NCBI GenBank assembly: GCA_023391105.1
Contig: JAEWBO010000013.1
Location: 10,433-74,432, forward strand
Length of the DNA: 64,000 nt
Direction: 5' to 3'
Source of the DNA: Bacillota bacterium
GTDB taxonomy: Bacteria > Bacillota > Clostridia > Christensenellales > SZUA-584
Below are positions 24,009-29,809 of this stretch, one piece after another (the stretch's first letter is position 1; each line of letters begins with the position of its first letter). The notes beneath the pieces were generated by a model. It worked only from the letters and a program-made list of their open reading frames with translations. It did not search any database and was not told the origin of the DNA. A program made the position numbers and the translations under genes.

Positions 24009-24108
24009 GCCAATTCTTTTCTTTTGTTAAAGAACAAATATTCAAAGAAACTCATAGTATACATCAGCAAACAATACATGTTTGTTCTCGATGAAAGGAG
24101 TTTTTTTC

Positions 24109-24543
24109 ATGCCAGATGGAATAAATACATCAAGTGATATGGAAATCGCGCAGCGCGGCGGACGTGGCGGTTTCCCGGGCGGTGGTCCGCGTGGCGGCTT
24201 CCCAGGCAGAGGATTCCCGCGCGGTGGTTTTCCCCGCAGGCGGTTTCCCCGGAGATTTCCGGTAAGACGCTTTCCCAGATTCTTTTTCTTCCCAATTGGC
24301 TTCCCGACCGGACGGTGCTTTTTTATAGATCAATTTGGCCGGTGCTGTGACCAATTTGGCCGGTGCTGTGACCGATTTGGCAGGTGTGTCTTCGATAACA
24401 GATTCGCAGATAACCGTGTCGCGTTTGGTCCGCAGTCAGACGGCTGGTTCGGCATACCGGGAAGTTGGGATATGATGCCGGATTATGATGACATGGCGGA
24501 TTATGACATGGACGATATGGACGATATGGACGACTTTAGCTAA
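24109..24543 (+). CDS. extreme low-complexity protein (144 aa): RGG/RFP-repeat basic N-half, DQFGRCC repeats, acidic D/M tail
   Basis: AAAGGAG SD 9 nt before the ATG at 24109, and a strong hairpin terminator 48 nt after the stop. No family recognised. Confidence 0.6.
   Translation: MPDGINTSSDMEIAQRGGRGGFPGGGPRGGFPGRGFPRGGFPRRRFPRRFPVRRFPRFFFFPIGFPTGRCFFIDQFGRCCDQFGRCCDRFGRCVFDNRFADNRVAFGPQSDGWFGIPGSWDMMPDYDDMADYDMDDMDDMDDFS
24328..24390 (+). repeat. three tandem 21-bp units inside the low-complexity gene (encode DQFGRCC / DQFGRCC / DRFGRCV)
   Basis: gatcaatttggccggtgctgt | gaccaatttggccggtgctgt | gaccgatttggcaggtgtgtc, read directly. Confidence 0.9.
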
Positions 24544-25001: not shown

Positions 25002-25162
25002 ATTATACCCCCTTTATGTTTATTTTATTAACTATTTTATTGATGCGATATTAAAACTGTGCAAATGCGCCATTTTACATGATCTGCAACCAAAAACTTA
25101 AGTTGACGTCTATGATAAGTCTTAAGTTCATATTTATGAATAGAACAAAAAGGAGCCCCTTT

Positions 25163-26287
25163 ATGTACTCTACGCAGGTATCACGGAATAAAATGATTGT
25201 GCTTTATGTGTCGCTGGTTTTTTTTATAATTACCGGCTTATTGCTTTTGACACTATGCCGCGATGAAGCAAGCCCGGCTGTTAATGCTGATAGCGAGGAC
25301 TGGCAAAGGATATTGAATGAGTTATTTGACTTACGTAATGACAGTATCTTAAAACAGGATAAAGAGACACTTGAAGATATTTTTCTCATAAATGAGAAAA
25401 ATGGAAGGTGGGCATATGAATTTGAGGTGCAGAGAGCAAAATATCTAAGCGCATGGTCGGCCAAACAGGGCGTTGAGATAACAAGTATTCACAGCGAAAT
25501 AAAAATAAAAAGCGTAAAACAAGTCGGGCGAGGCTATTCTTTTTATCTTATCTCATCAAATGAATACAAATATGCCTATGTGGATACGCCGAAAACTGAA
25601 AATATATTTCGTTTGGGAGCATATCATTCATTAGACCTGATTCCCAGTGAGGAGGTCGATAATAGCTGGATAATCAGCCGGGAATGGTATGATGATCCGC
25701 TGTTGGATTCAATCAATTTGGATAATGTGACCGAGGAGATGACTGATTATATCATGGCTCATCCTGCTATTGACATATCAGGCATTAGTGATCAGCGCGT
25801 CACGGCGGTCGAATATGCTGATATGTACTGCGGGGCGGCATCAGGCGGTCAAAATAATTATGAGTATAACAGCGAATATACCAATTACAACCCTTTGGGC
25901 GGAGACTGCGCTAATTTTGCGTCTCAGGTTTTACTCGCAGGCGGTTTTAAAAAGAATGGAACCTGGAATTATGCAGGCGGCAAAGGAAGCCGCGCATGGG
26001 TCAATGCGCAAGGTCTCAAGGATTACCTGCTATACAGCGGACGGGCCTCATTGTTGGCGGCAGGCAGCTACAAGGAAATCTATCAGTATGCTTACAGTCT
26101 GCGTCCCGGCGACATTGTGGCATATGTAAAAAAAGGAAAGGTGGCTCATGTGTCTGTGGTCACAGGCGCTGACTCCAAGGGATATCCGCTCGTGAGCTGT
26201 CACAATCTAGACCGTTACCGCGTGCCATGGGATATCGGCTGGAGCGGTGATAATGTGAGGTATTTTCTCCTGAACGTCAGCTATTAA
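25163..26287 (+). CDS. membrane-anchored putative amidase-domain protein (Amidase_6-like)
   Basis: ATG at 25163 after AAAAGGAG. N-terminal TM helix. C-terminal GGDCANFASQVLLAGGF...GDIVAY...HVSVV papain-like Cys/His blocks. Confidence 0.7.
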   Translation: MYSTQVSRNKMIVLYVSLVFFIITGLLLLTLCRDEASPAVNADSEDWQRILNELFDLRNDSILKQDKETLEDIFLINEKNGRWAYEFEVQRAKYLSAWSAKQGVEITSIHSEIKIKSVKQVGRGYSFYLISSNEYKYAYVDTPKTENIFRLGAYHSLDLIPSEEVDNSWIISREWYDDPLLDSINLDNVTEEMTDYIMAHPAIDISGISDQRVTAVEYADMYCGAASGGQNNYEYNSEYTNYNPLGGDCANFASQVLLAGGFKKNGTWNYAGGKGSRAWVNAQGLKDYLLYSGRASLLAAGSYKEIYQYAYSLRPGDIVAYVKKGKVAHVSVVTGADSKGYPLVSCHNLDRYRVPWDIGWSGDNVRYFLLNVSY

Positions 26288-26369
26288 AAATCATCTTTAC
26301 TTGGCATTCGCATATTTAGAGCCAGAATTGAAAAACTAAACCATGATATTATCATACAAGGAGACAGGC

Positions 26370-27314
26370 ATGAGCGAACAGGACAAGCAGTCAAAAGCGT
26401 TATCGGCCCGCTGCGCTTATCAACTCGCAGACGTGGAGAAAACAGCCCCTCAATATATATCCATCAGTCCCAGATGGCTGACAAGATTCCTGGAATGGAA
26501 ACCACTTGAGTCGGGCATATTCCGCCTTAATAAGGTGAGAAATGGTCAAGATCTGCTGGAGACACTGTGCACCCAGTCTAACGGAGAAGACATTCCGGAA
26601 GGCTATATTGATTATGAGCCAGAGCCCCGCGAATACATTCTTAGCTCCGTATCTTCTATTATAAAAATCGAAACACGCGTATCAGATATATACAGTAAGC
26701 CATATGATCAGATCAAGGAACAACTGCGACTTGGCATGGAGAGCATCAAAGAGAAACAGGAAAGCCTCATCATCAACAGCGATGATTATGGGCTGCTCAA
26801 AAACGTAGGCGATGCGCAAAGAATCAAAACGCGCAATGGTTCGCCCACGCCGGATGATCTCGACGATATGATCGCCAAGGTATGGAAGCAGCCGTCTTTC
26901 TTTCTTGCGCACCCCGCTGCCATCGCCGCGTTTGGCCGCGAATGCACACGCCGTGGCGTGCCGCCGGTGGCCGTTAACCTTCATGGCTCCCAGTTCATTA
27001 CATGGCGCGGTATTCCGCTTGTGCCTACGGACAAGCTTTTAATAGACGGACATAGAAAACCGCGCGACTCAAAGGGGAAAACGAATATTTTTCTGATACG
27101 CAGCGGCGAAGCCAATCAGGGTGTTATTGGCTTGTACCAGACAGGGCTGCCCGGAGAACAGTCTCGCGGCCTTTCCGTGCGGTTTATGGGCATCAACAAT
27201 CAGGGAATCGGTTATTACTTGCTGTCTATCTATTGCTCAACGGCCATTTTAACAGATGACGCGATTGCCGTTCTTGAGGACGTCGAAATCGGAAATTATT
27301 ATGATTATCAATAA
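26370..27314 (+). CDS. family 2A encapsulin nanocompartment shell protein (SrpI-like), no cNMP-binding insertion
   Basis: 314 aa from the ATG at 26370 (SD AAGGAG). I recognise these blocks from family 2A shells: ISPRWLTRFLEWKPLESGIFRLNKV, TRVSDIYSKPYDQIKEQLRLGMESIKEKQE, TPDDLDDMIAKVWKQPSFFLAHPAAIAAFGRECTRRGVPP, FITWRGIPLVPTDK, LTDDAIAVLEDVE. A desulfurase follows immediately. Confidence 0.85.
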   Translation: MSEQDKQSKALSARCAYQLADVEKTAPQYISISPRWLTRFLEWKPLESGIFRLNKVRNGQDLLETLCTQSNGEDIPEGYIDYEPEPREYILSSVSSIIKIETRVSDIYSKPYDQIKEQLRLGMESIKEKQESLIINSDDYGLLKNVGDAQRIKTRNGSPTPDDLDDMIAKVWKQPSFFLAHPAAIAAFGRECTRRGVPPVAVNLHGSQFITWRGIPLVPTDKLLIDGHRKPRDSKGKTNIFLIRSGEANQGVIGLYQTGLPGEQSRGLSVRFMGINNQGIGYYLLSIYCSTAILTDDAIAVLEDVEIGNYYDYQ

Positions 27315-28776
27315 TAATCTGTACGACATTGAAAGCGGTACGTTAAACCAGGATAAGCTCATAAAAGAATCGGTCGCTTCGCTGGCAAAAATGTATTTCC
27401 CCGAATTTAATCCGTTGTATTCTCAAACATCCGAACCGTCAATCGAAGCGGCGGATTTATTTGCCGAACGAATTCGCGTTGATTCCCTGCTTAAATTGGA
27501 CAAAGATGATACAGCATTGGATAGTGACGAAGGCTTAGACGGTACGCGAAAAGACTTTCCTATTCTTTCTGAAAAAGTGAACGGACATCCGCTTGTGTGG
27601 TTCGATAACGCCGCGACCACGCAAAAGCCGCAATGCGTGATCGATCGAATCAAGGCGTTTTACGAGCATGAAAACTCGAATGTGCACCGCGGCGCACATT
27701 CGCTTGCCAGAAGAACGACAGATGCTTATGAAGACGCACGCGCGAAAGCTGGCGCTTTTCTCAACGCGTCCACGACTCAAGAGATCGTTTTTGTTCGCGG
27801 CACCACGGAAGCCATCAACCTTGCGGCGCATTCGTATGGTCTCCCCCATCTTCATGATGGCGATGAGGTGCTAATCACACAGCTTGAACACCATGCAAAC
27901 ATCGTACCTTGGCAGATCGTCTGCGCCAAAACAGGCGCAAAGCTAAAGGCGTCGCCGGTTAACGAGTACGGGCAGGTTGATATGGCAGCGTTTGAAAAGT
28001 TGCTCAGCAATAAGACAAAGCTGGTGGCCATCACGCATGTGTCCAATGCCATCGGTACGGTGACACCAGTCGCACAAATGATTCAAATTGCACACCAGTA
28101 TGGCGCCAGAGTGTTTGTAGACGGCGCACAGGCGGTGGCGCATCAAGCTATAGATGTGCAGGTGCTCGATTGTGACTTTTACGCCTTCTCAGGTCATAAG
28201 GTGTTCGGGCCAACCGGTATTGGGGTTCTGTATGCAAAATCAGAGTTGCTTGAAGACATGCCGCCCTATCAGGGCGGCGGCAGTATGATCGAGGATGTCT
28301 CATTGGAGAGCACAAAATACAAAGCCCCTCCCCATCGTTTTGAAGCGGGAACGGGCAATATTGCGGGTGCAATCGGGCTTGGCGCGGCACTTGATTACGT
28401 CAGACACGTGGGGCTTAATCGTATTGAGCAATACGAAAAACGCTTGCTCTTACACGCTTGTGATTCTTTGAAAGGTGTCCCAGGTCTCAAAATAATAGGC
28501 AAGCCGCAAGCGGGAATTGTCTCGTTTTTGCTGAATGGCGTTTCCCCGGAAGAAGTCGGAAAGCATCTCGACCAGCAAGGCATCGCCGTCAGGGCCGGTC
28601 ATCATTGCGCTCAGCCGATCTTGCGGTATCTTGGCTATGAAAGCACCTTGCGCGTATCACTTGCACTTTACAACACACGATCTGAAATTGACCGTCTTGT
28701 AAACGCACTTAAGAATATCGGCAGAGCCACATCATATTGGTCTTTCCCGCCTATTCCTCAAGTAATGCCTGATTGA
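27301..28776 (+). CDS. SufS-type cysteine desulfurase with ~80-aa N-terminal extension (putative encapsulin cargo)
   Basis: The ATG at 27301 overlaps the shell gene end by 14 nt. The core begins at RKDFPIL...WFDNAATTQKP. PLP lysine in FSGHK and catalytic Cys in RAGHHCAQP. Confidence 0.9.
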   Translation: MIINNNLYDIESGTLNQDKLIKESVASLAKMYFPEFNPLYSQTSEPSIEAADLFAERIRVDSLLKLDKDDTALDSDEGLDGTRKDFPILSEKVNGHPLVWFDNAATTQKPQCVIDRIKAFYEHENSNVHRGAHSLARRTTDAYEDARAKAGAFLNASTTQEIVFVRGTTEAINLAAHSYGLPHLHDGDEVLITQLEHHANIVPWQIVCAKTGAKLKASPVNEYGQVDMAAFEKLLSNKTKLVAITHVSNAIGTVTPVAQMIQIAHQYGARVFVDGAQAVAHQAIDVQVLDCDFYAFSGHKVFGPTGIGVLYAKSELLEDMPPYQGGGSMIEDVSLESTKYKAPPHRFEAGTGNIAGAIGLGAALDYVRHVGLNRIEQYEKRLLLHACDSLKGVPGLKIIGKPQAGIVSFLLNGVSPEEVGKHLDQQGIAVRAGHHCAQPILRYLGYESTLRVSLALYNTRSEIDRLVNALKNIGRATSYWSFPPIPQVMPD

Positions 28777-29809
28777 TAAGCTCCGCAACCAGATACTTGG
28801 CTTTAGACCATATCAGCGACTCAAAATCCGCATCATCATGCGGCGCGCTGCCGTTGCCTGTGGGCGTGAGTTCTATGCAAAAGCCGGGGCGCGAGAAGTC
28901 CTGCCGGAACCAGTTTTCGAACCCGGCGGCATATACTGCCGGATCTTCGGATACAGGCATGAGCTCATAGCCTGTCACATCTGCCATTGTCTGCGCGATA
29001 GATGAGCCCGCCGCAATGCTGTCCTGCGTGCCGCTGTCCGCCCAGTAAATCACATCGCCCTTGGTGTGGAAAGAAGCGGTGAGCAAAAAGTCGTTATTCT
29101 TGCAGAGCGTCATTATGGCCTGAACCTCGGGTTCGGTGCCGGGCGCTGTGCCCTTATACATCTCTGAGCTTGGCATATCGGTATTGCTTTGCTTTTCGTC
29201 CCAGTGGCAGGGGTACTGGCGGTTTAAGTCCACGCCGTTTATGTTGGCCTTCCATTCCTCATAGCCAATCTGCAGCATACGCATAGATTTGACCCTCTCT
29301 GGATCCTTCACAGCCTCAACGCCGTTTTGTACGAGATTCACGCCATCAGGATTGACCATCGGCACAATATAAACCGTCACCTCATTAAGCAGCGCTTTTA
29401 TATCATACTCGCCGAAATCTTCTTTTGCGGCATAATGGCGTGCATATTCATCTGTCATCTCCATCAGAAACGTGGCGGTAATATATTCGCGTGCGTGGTG
29501 CGTTCCCGCAAGCATAATTTTCTGTTCACCCTTGCCAATCTTAATAAGCAAAAGCTCACGCCCTTCAACGGATTGTCCGATTGTGTCGGTGGCAATTAAA
29601 TCGGGATATGTGTCTGCCAGCATTTGAGCGTCGCTGAGCATTTGCTCATAACTGTAGGTTTGAGACGGGTTGACAACGTCTGCAAACTCATTGATTTCGT
29701 GTTGCGGAATATCTCCAATATCAACGATCTCAATATCTGGATTCGGTGCAGTGCATGCCGATATGCTTATAACCGCAATGATGATTAATATCAAGAGTGT
29801 TTTTTTCAT
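28751..29809 (-). CDS. lipoprotein M14-family zinc carboxypeptidase (gamma-D-glutamyl-meso-DAP peptidase-like)
   Basis: Lipobox ISISAC. Zinc motif GTHHAREYIT and IVPMVNPDG. Its 3' end overlaps the desulfurase 3' end by 26 bp. Confidence 0.85.
   Translation of the reverse strand: MKKTLLILIIIAVISISACTAPNPDIEIVDIGDIPQHEINEFADVVNPSQTYSYEQMLSDAQMLADTYPDLIATDTIGQSVEGRELLLIKIGKGEQKIMLAGTHHAREYITATFLMEMTDEYARHYAAKEDFGEYDIKALLNEVTVYIVPMVNPDGVNLVQNGVEAVKDPERVKSMRMLQIGYEEWKANINGVDLNRQYPCHWDEKQSNTDMPSSEMYKGTAPGTEPEVQAIMTLCKNNDFLLTASFHTKGDVIYWADSGTQDSIAAGSSIAQTMADVTGYELMPVSEDPAVYAAGFENWFRQDFSRPGFCIELTPTGNGSAPHDDADFESLIWSKAKYLVAELINQALLEE

Follow-up and report, generated by a model that had tools for sequence, protein, structure and literature searches.

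A 64,000-nucleotide stretch of contig JAEWBO010000013.1 from a clostridial member of the Bacillota (hereafter the window, meaning that whole stretch) contains an encapsulin shell gene followed by a gene for a cysteine desulfurase with an 82-residue N-terminal extension. We propose that residues 1-82 serve as the cargo-loading domain, in naturally shortened form, of a Family 2A (SrpI-type) cysteine-desulfurase encapsulin, a reading to which we assign a probability of roughly 0.78. An earlier note, made from the DNA letters alone, had put the extension forward as a candidate cargo-loading domain, and comparison with related loci supports this proposal; the evidence includes a conserved block within the extension, sequences that bridge the block to a published motif, and an overlap between the shell and desulfurase genes.

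A Family 2A shell gene and its presumed cargo gene

Judged by sequence similarity, the products of the two genes are a Family 2A encapsulin shell protein and a SufS-like class II cysteine desulfurase, and gene order, shell and enzyme together make this a Family 2A desulfurase encapsulin system of the known kind. The shell protein matches the Pfam SrpI-like family PF19307 (E = 1.9e-95, 319.1 bits, cut-off 22.8) and the NCBIfam model NF041162 (encap_f2a; 485.9 bits, cut-off 380). It aligns from end to end with the solved shells of Acinetobacter baumannii (PDB 8t6r, 310 aa; E = 3.1e-124), SrpI (PDB 6x8m, 314 aa; E = 1.7e-116) and the mycobacterial MMP-I. Relative to 8t6r and 6x8m it has a single insertion, of 8 residues, and the cyclic nucleotide monophosphate (cNMP)-binding insertion that is the hallmark of Family 2B is absent. 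A strong Shine-Dalgarno sequence, AAGGAGA, lies 6-7 nt upstream of the shell ATG at 26370.

The desulfurase matches the Pfam family Aminotran_5 (PF00266) over residues 99-466 (E = 6.9e-147) and the NCBIfam model TIGR01979 with 575.5 bits (cut-off 475.1). Its best match in the PDB is 8KG1, the tail-less encapsulated desulfurase of Mycobacterium smegmatis (E = 2.5e-158). The pyridoxal phosphate-binding lysine K300 and the catalytic cysteine C436 are invariant in an alignment of 24 sequences. The top NCBIfam model for the protein is the Family 2A cargo model NF041166 (f2_encap_cargo1), with a score of 719.6 bits that is under the cut-off of 800.

The N-terminal extension is present in related loci

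The earlier note placed the extension at positions 27301-27546 and singled out the string SLAKMYFPEF within it. Both placements are exact: the frame that begins at the ATG encodes the 82 residues quoted there, and SLAKMYFPEF spans S27 to F36 (27379-27408). A SufS-type start near residue 83, also claimed there, is borne out by R83, which opens the sequence RKDFPIL. Solved SufS structures align with the protein only from residue 79-83, which corresponds to residue 5 of Escherichia coli SufS (PDB alignments, with coverage of residues 79-476), so some 74-78 residues lie beyond the canonical SufS N-terminus. Residues 1-82 have no match in Pfam, NCBIfam or the PDB. They are polar and acidic, as the earlier note had described them, with 17 Asp and Glu against 7 Lys and Arg, three Pro and three Gly.

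Using the shell protein as query, we took 80 loci from species-representative genomes. A desulfurase gene lies downstream of the shell gene in 79 of them, and in 78 of these 79 the frame upstream of the catalytic domain is open to the shell stop codon or nearly so. The exception, L040 of Methylobacillus glycogenes, has just 20 open codons ahead of the desulfurase domain, which is 238 codons away from the shell stop; the interruption may come from a frameshift or from faulty assembly of that record. In the window, the last codons and the stop of the shell gene share bases with the desulfurase ATG at 27301 (ATGATTATCAATAA), and this 14-nt overlap is a probable case of translational coupling. The overlapping-ATG arrangement is found in most of the 79 related loci, recurs across phyla and in three clades, and is seen also at a paralogous locus in the same genome, on contig C16 (discussed below). 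Every orthologue has an extension. The one from the same genus (L102) is identical in length, with no indel over the 82 codons, and its first in-frame ATG is that of MIINN, with no in-frame ATG upstream.

The extension would not exist if translation began at M31 (27391) or later and the frame upstream were open by chance. There is indeed an in-frame ATG at 27391, and the Shine-Dalgarno match in front of ATG 27301 is weak (GGAAA). But a chance frame sits badly with the open frames in nearly all loci, with the overlapping ATG that recurs in three clades, and with the L102 comparison. In addition, a conserved block (described next) lies upstream of and across M31, and M31, the sole plausible internal start, is not conserved outside the genus. 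We give a downstream start hardly any credence, and the comparisons indicate that chance does not account for the open frame of the extension.

A single conserved block in a variable tail

The extension is 77-135 aa long in the 13 closest loci, all from metagenome-assembled genomes of Bacillota/Clostridia, and 71-181 aa long in 19 clostridial relatives with orthologous extensions, among which length and sequence are variable. In 65 loci from Bacteroidota and Pseudomonadota, including the Acinetobacter calcoaceticus-baumannii group, it is 149-335 aa long, with a median of 246. An alignment of 14 clostridial extensions contains three conserved elements: an N-terminal MI[TI]N[NS], an 18-residue block, and the SufS N-terminus with the pattern [FL]DV..IRxDFPIL. 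Conservation of MI[TI]N[NS] is ambiguous, because the same bases encode the YDYQ-stop at the C-terminus of the shell protein. The block has the pattern h-x-x-h-x-x-[SM]-[LMA]-x-x-x-[YF]-[FY]-P-E-[FL] (h, hydrophobic) and reads KLIKESVASLAKMYFPEF in the window, at residues 19-36. Between the conserved elements, length and sequence differ among orthologues, with 0-33 residues before the block and 29-148 after it. The block, which contains the candidate motif of the earlier note, is the only one conserved within the extension among the clostridial orthologues.

We ran AlphaFold2 on the 24-sequence alignment, as a single chain. Most of the catalytic domain has a predicted local distance difference test (pLDDT) score above 90, and prediction is confident from about residue 78. 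The extension had been described as looking disordered, and this holds for residues 1-5 and 38-77, where pLDDT is below 50, but not for residues 17-32, which are predicted to form a helix (pLDDT about 64-72). The peak helical hydrophobic moment of the extension falls at residues 19-32, and the model points to an amphipathic helix followed by P-E-F as the structure of the block. Relative to L102, the ratio of nonsynonymous to synonymous substitution rates (dN/dS) is 0.67 across the extension, 0.155 in the catalytic domain, and 0.26 at residues 19-37, the last value being based on few changes and therefore only indicative. At that strength, it suggests stronger purifying selection on the block than on the remainder of the extension.

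A profile of 17 orthologous blocks, which leaves out the window and L102, ranks the window desulfurase first among the 51,301 open reading frames (ORFs) from six-frame translation of the genome, with an E-value of 0.24. When a second cargo was sought genome-wide with the clade-specific block profile, the other matches were spurious ORFs of 34-47 aa only. When residues 1-95 were compared with 5.8 billion proteins in a word-based search, three close relatives were returned and no distant ones. Two loci, L105 (G137:C65) and L106 (G113:C127), have extensions of only about 37 and 52 aa without a recognizable YFPEF or canonical motif. They come from genomes of 1.7-1.9 Mb in another family of the order, their shells are on long branches, and their tails may be further reduced or lost.

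Bridging sequences suggest a link between the block and published motif 1

Two motifs, LARLANEFFS (motif 1) and AASPYYFLDG (motif 2), are found in most SrpI-associated desulfurases, within the N-terminal loading domain (Nichols et al. 2021, PMC8049743); the first is the LARLANEFF-type motif that the earlier note had mentioned, and it does exist in the literature. In our sample, all 65 Gram-negative tails carry LPD...L..LAN.[FL]F.ALP within their first 90 residues, and each has one or more [FY]YF[LIV]-type motifs beyond it. The clostridial block and motif 1 have in common the pattern [IVL]xx[LM]Axx[FY][FY] at the same position, but profiles of the canonical motif score the block at about 0 bits.

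A search with the shell model through 401 genomes from the window's order found a shell in 22 of them, including 9 of the 12 sampled in the window's genus. Four loci combine, in one register, the canonical N-terminal half of the motif (LPD...L..LA) with the clade-specific C-terminal half (YFPEF). Their bridging sequences are LPDAATLEALAREYFPEF in L096, ILEALASEFFPEF in L099, LPSENELAGIAAGYFGEL in L101 and LPDENEIFNVAEALFPTF in L104, and the four loci read GLPDAATLEALAREYFPEF, LDVSILEALASEFFPEF, GLPSENELAGIAAGYFGEL and GLPDENEIFNVAEALFPTF, respectively. The register runs from I-A-R-L-A-N-E-F-F-S-A-L in the canonical motif, through L-E-A-L-A-R-E-Y-F-P-E-F in L096, to V-A-S-L-A-K-M-Y-F-P-E-F in the window. 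In the shell phylogeny the four bridging loci are basal within the window-type clade (19 rows; support of 99 in the Shimodaira-Hasegawa-like approximate likelihood ratio test, SH-aLRT), and the crown of 13 members with YFPE[FL] has a support of 97. Because these basal intermediates join both halves, we judge the block to be linked to motif 1. We infer that it is a clostridial, diverged form of the published motif, in a lineage that lost motif 2 and most of the Pro/Gly/Ser-rich linker.

The shell may have changed alongside the tail. At the threefold axis of SrpI, residues F262 and Y273 were named as neighbors of the density ascribed to cargo (Nichols et al. 2021, PMC8049743). Their equivalents are kept in the window shell, and within its clade the Phe is present in 18 of 19 shells and the Tyr in all 19. 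Within the ten residues between these two positions the sequence is GIGxYLL in the crown clade, GIASYLL in the basal members with hybrid motifs, and AIASYL[IV] in the Gram-negatives. In the crown-clade shells two positions have a fixed change from Ala to Gly, and the position of the Ser is variable; these changes are at about residues 276-286 (approximately 27195-27227). This stepwise change in shell and tail is suggestive of co-adaptation, though it is not evidence of contact.

Alternative readings of the extension

Several observations weigh against our proposal. The match of the desulfurase to the cargo model NF041166 covers profile positions 228-622 only, and none of the first 227, which are the loading-domain part. 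The tail is acidic and not rich in Pro, Gly and Ser like the loading domains that have been described: these three residues make up 14 of its 82 positions (17%) and Asp plus Glu 21%, as compared to 31% and 9% in the 65 Gram-negative tails. Motif 2 (AASPYYFLDG type, [FY]YF[LIV]) is missing from the window tail and, across its clade, from 19 of 20 tails; it is present in 65 of 65 Gram-negative tails and in 15 of 15 tails of the type found at the C16 locus. A profile of the 65 Gram-negative motif-1 blocks, searched against the 51,301 genome ORFs and the 14 clostridial tails, gives about 0 bits on the window block and on those tails. Adding the four bridging sequences to this profile still gives about 0 bits on the window block. 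Among the 14 other crown-clade tails, those of L102 and the 13 loci, the augmented profile does have its best match at the YFPEF block in 12, but this is not so in the window, and the scores are again about 0 bits. We take this as no statistical support; the comparison is also partly circular. The motif-1 profile is itself weak, barely scoring the canonical LMSLANSYY of the C16 paralogue. The resemblance of SLAKMYFPEF to LARLANEFF-type motifs, as asserted in the earlier note, is therefore supported by the bridging sequences and the common register but is undetectable by profile search, and homology between the block and motif 1 rests on position and intermediates, not on statistics. The moderate pLDDT of the helix may reflect packing on the enzyme itself. 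Finally, isolated motifs did not load cargo in two published systems. Motif 2, the sole motif tested in Synechococcus elongatus, failed on its own (Nichols et al. 2021, PMC8049743), and so did each of the three motifs of M. smegmatis (Tang et al. 2024, PMC11659603). It may therefore be that the window tail depends on the flanks of its motif, or that it loads poorly or at low efficiency.

Some of these points also fit two other readings of a real extension. The profile scores and the possible packing of the helix on the enzyme would suit a YFPEF block that is a clade-specific element unrelated to motif 1, with a different site on the shell or some other role, such as enzyme regulation, dimer contacts or recruitment of a sulfur acceptor, loading being left to something else or to diffuse contacts. 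This is also favored by the absence from the crown clade of the invariant Asn of LAN and of the flanking LPD and ALP, and by the fixed changes that crown shells have between the F262 and Y273 equivalents. We nevertheless think an unrelated block unlikely, because the basal hybrids hold both halves in one register, the shells of these hybrid members branch between the crown clade and the rest, and the block stands in the same place, as the first conserved element, 1-35 residues from the N-terminus, of an orthologous gene adjoining an orthologous shell. As for a role in the enzyme, published work found the N-terminal domain to be without effect on catalysis (PMC8049743, PMC11659603). The other reading is that the extension is a decaying remnant, in a desulfurase that is no longer encapsulated, or only weakly, now that motif 2 and much the greater part of the linker are gone. 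The widespread loss of motif 2 in window-type tails (19 of 20), the dN/dS of 0.67 across the extension, the insufficiency of published single motifs for loading, and the neighborhood of the gene pair all lend it something: the adjoining genes are an amidase gene and an M14 peptidase gene, and the usual rhodanese or serine acetyltransferase neighbors are absent. Decay is nonetheless very unlikely in our view, given that the shell gene is intact and above the NCBIfam equivalog cut-off, that its overlap with the desulfurase gene has been kept, and that the block, with its lower dN/dS, is retained across 19 genomes from several families of the order. An unbroken frame in a region that could drift freely points to continued use.

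A second Family 2A locus in the same genome

Searches for class-V aminotransferases and with the shell model found a second Family 2A locus in the genome, on the minus strand of contig C16 (C16:16722-19095; L081). Its shell (321-328 aa) is 51% identical to the window shell, whereas the window and Acinetobacter shells are about 60% identical. At the F262 position the C16 shell has Leu, and in the shell tree it falls in a clostridial clade of its own kind, separate from that of the window and set on a long branch. The C16 desulfurase (466 aa; L081:96-1493, minus strand) has an overlapping MITNN start and a tail of 70 aa with both canonical motifs, LMSLANSYY and ETPYYFM. Within the C16-type clade motif 2 is kept in every tail, and motif 1 is variable. 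Against the cut-off of 800 bits for NF041166 the C16 desulfurase scores 698.9, and both short-tailed desulfurases are above the SufS subfamily cut-off. The C16 locus adjoins a divergently oriented set of three genes that, judged by size and sequence and without a family search, look like GerA-type spore-germination genes.

The two systems occur together in four or five of the sampled genomes (among them the window genome, G166, G376 and G391). It is conceivable, though unlikely, that clostridial Family 2A systems split the two loading motifs between paralogous lineages, the window type keeping only a remodelled motif 1 (YFPEF form) and the C16 type always motif 2, with matched changes in the respective shells near the F262/Y273 patch, and could in this way sort two desulfurases into two separate shells without cross-loading. 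If so, a helix of about 18 residues and a tether of at least 30 residues would amount to a complete natural loading tag. However, 12 of the 13 genomes with a window-type system have a single shell gene, so loss of the motif is not tied to co-residence. This count weakens the idea that partitioning of the motifs evolved for orthogonal sorting between co-resident shells, and such sorting is possible but unsupported.

A possible mode of loading and comparison with known systems

If the extension is a shortened loading domain, then by analogy with tested systems it would be captured on the inner surface of the shell during assembly. The block would form an amphipathic helix with a hydrophobic face made of I21, V25, L28 and Y32/F33, followed by P-E-F36, and this face would dock on a non-polar patch of the inner shell near the conserved F262/Y273 equivalents at the threefold axis. 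The acidic, disordered stretch of about 45 residues would tether the desulfurase dimer in the shell lumen, where sulfur taken from cysteine would be put into storage, as has been shown for the Acinetobacter system. The block is the likely anchor because it is the only conserved, structured and amphipathic element of the tail, and the acidic stretch that follows would probably be the tether. Cargo density has been seen on non-polar patches of the inner surface, near the threefold axis, in Acinetobacter (Benisch et al. 2024, PMC10836720) and also for a shell of Family 2B (Andreas et al. 2024, bioRxiv 10.1101/2024.04.23.590730). In M. smegmatis, the first 50 residues alone suffice for loading (Tang et al. 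2024, PMC11659603), which supports the view that a short N-terminal piece can be workable.

The earlier note had called the extension much shorter than the cyanobacterial one, and the lengths agree: 82 aa in the window, about 225 aa in Synechococcus and Acinetobacter, and 155 aa in M. smegmatis. The SrpI/CyD system of S. elongatus PCC 7942 (PMC8049743; PDB 6X8M/6X8T) is like that of the window in having a Family 2A shell with the F262/Y273 equivalents, a SufS-like desulfurase gene after the shell gene, a disordered N-terminal domain, and, near the N-terminus, a motif that in the window is probably a form of the LARLANEFFS type. It differs in that the window tail has 82 rather than about 225 residues, has a motif without Asn but with P-E-F, has no motif of AASPYYFLDG type, and is acidic rather than Pro/Gly/Ser-rich. 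The window host, moreover, is an anaerobic clostridial bacterium, and the genes near its system are not sulfur-starvation genes.

The nearest solved shell, at about 60% identity, is that of A. baumannii 118362 (Benisch et al. 2024, PMC10836720; PDB 8T6R), where the core of the system is likewise two genes, the second with an overlapping start. Its relatives within Acinetobacter carry FPDESTIARLANEFFSALP at residues ~30-50. The Acinetobacter tail is about 225-250 aa long and has five partly conserved motifs with discontiguous shell contacts, whereas the window tail has one conserved block and a linker of 46 residues. The nearest solved catalytic domain is that of the M. smegmatis Mmp1/Enc-CD system (Tang et al. 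2024, PMC11659603; PDB 8WOL, 8KG1), where loading is directed by the 155 aa of a disordered N-terminal region with three motifs identified by MEME, as against one in the window. Short tails are also known from a sub-clade of the Family 2B 2-methylisoborneol synthases, cluster 2, where they have 31 +/- 12 residues and a divergent consensus motif, and where the authors suggested that they represent minimal binding motifs (Andreas et al. 2024, bioRxiv 10.1101/2024.04.23.590730). Those systems differ from the window in their cargo enzyme, in their motif (LPGPP or GPxGLGT) and in their Family 2B shells. Published surveys place the family in 11-12 phyla, and full-text literature searches found nothing relevant on the YFPEF form of the motif or on clostridial Family 2 desulfurase systems. 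The putative loading domain of the window is a departure from the described type in its length, motif content, composition, cargo-model score and host.

Features of the locus and neighboring genes

Coordinates of the features are collected in Table 1. The last 16 or so residues of the desulfurase form a C-terminal tail (ATSYWSFPPIPQVMPD, 28726-28776) with a pLDDT of 61-65. We considered this tail as a second loading element and rejected it, as it is not conserved in orthologues. The last 26 nt of the desulfurase gene overlap the 3' end of a convergent gene on the minus strand (28751-29809), called as an M14-type peptidase.

Table 1. Features of the encapsulin locus, with positions in the window.
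Feature	Position	Strand	Basis
Family 2A encapsulin shell gene, 314 aa, without cNMP-binding insertion	26370..27314	+	Pfam, NCBIfam and PDB matches
Cysteine desulfurase gene, 491 aa + stop, presumed cargo	27301..28776	+	Pfam, PDB and NCBIfam matches
Overlap of desulfurase start and shell end, 14 nt, ATGATTATCAATAA	27301..27314	+	Direct reading of the sequence
N-terminal extension, 82 residues, proposed cargo-loading domain	27301..27546	+	Comparison of orthologues
Conserved 18-residue block KLIKESVASLAKMYFPEF, residues 19-36, proposed shell-binding anchor	27355..27408	+	Alignment
Acidic linker, residues 37-78, predicted disordered, proposed flexible tether	27409..27534	+	pLDDT, variability
SufS-like class II catalytic domain, residues 79-491, including window-specific C-terminal tail	27535..28773	+	PDB alignments, pLDDT

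Upstream of the shell gene, at a distance of 82 nt, is a plus-strand gene (25079-26287) for an Amidase_6/CHAP-like protein (Pfam E = 4.7e-47) that has a hydrophobic segment at its N-terminus. Between the two genes lies a promoter-like site, TTGAAA-16-TATCAT (26328-26355). Two genes upstream of the shell gene is a plus-strand ORF of 153 aa (24082-24543) that has no Pfam match and is of extreme low complexity, consisting of a half rich in Arg, Gly, Pro and Phe, DQFGRCC repeats, and an acidic tail rich in Asp and Met.

Implications for Family 2A cargo loading

We know of no structure that has assigned any residue of a loading domain to density on the shell, and loading in Family 2 is, to our knowledge, poorly defined. 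The published tails known to us have 155-225 residues with several redundant motifs, and the 82 residues of the window tail are fewer than in any published example that we are aware of. That a desulfurase is packed in a sulfur-storing shell is already known biology, and what is new here is the tail variant, which from comparison of sequences is most likely a naturally minimal, single-motif version of the known cargo-loading domain. A tail with one helix and a short tether would present a small set of residues for mutation, making the loading contact easier to test, and it would be a candidate for a compact tag to direct foreign proteins into Family 2A shells. Because short-tailed desulfurases fall under the NF041166 cut-off, annotation pipelines are likely to name them as plain SufS and so to overlook cargo enzymes of this kind in anaerobic Bacillota.

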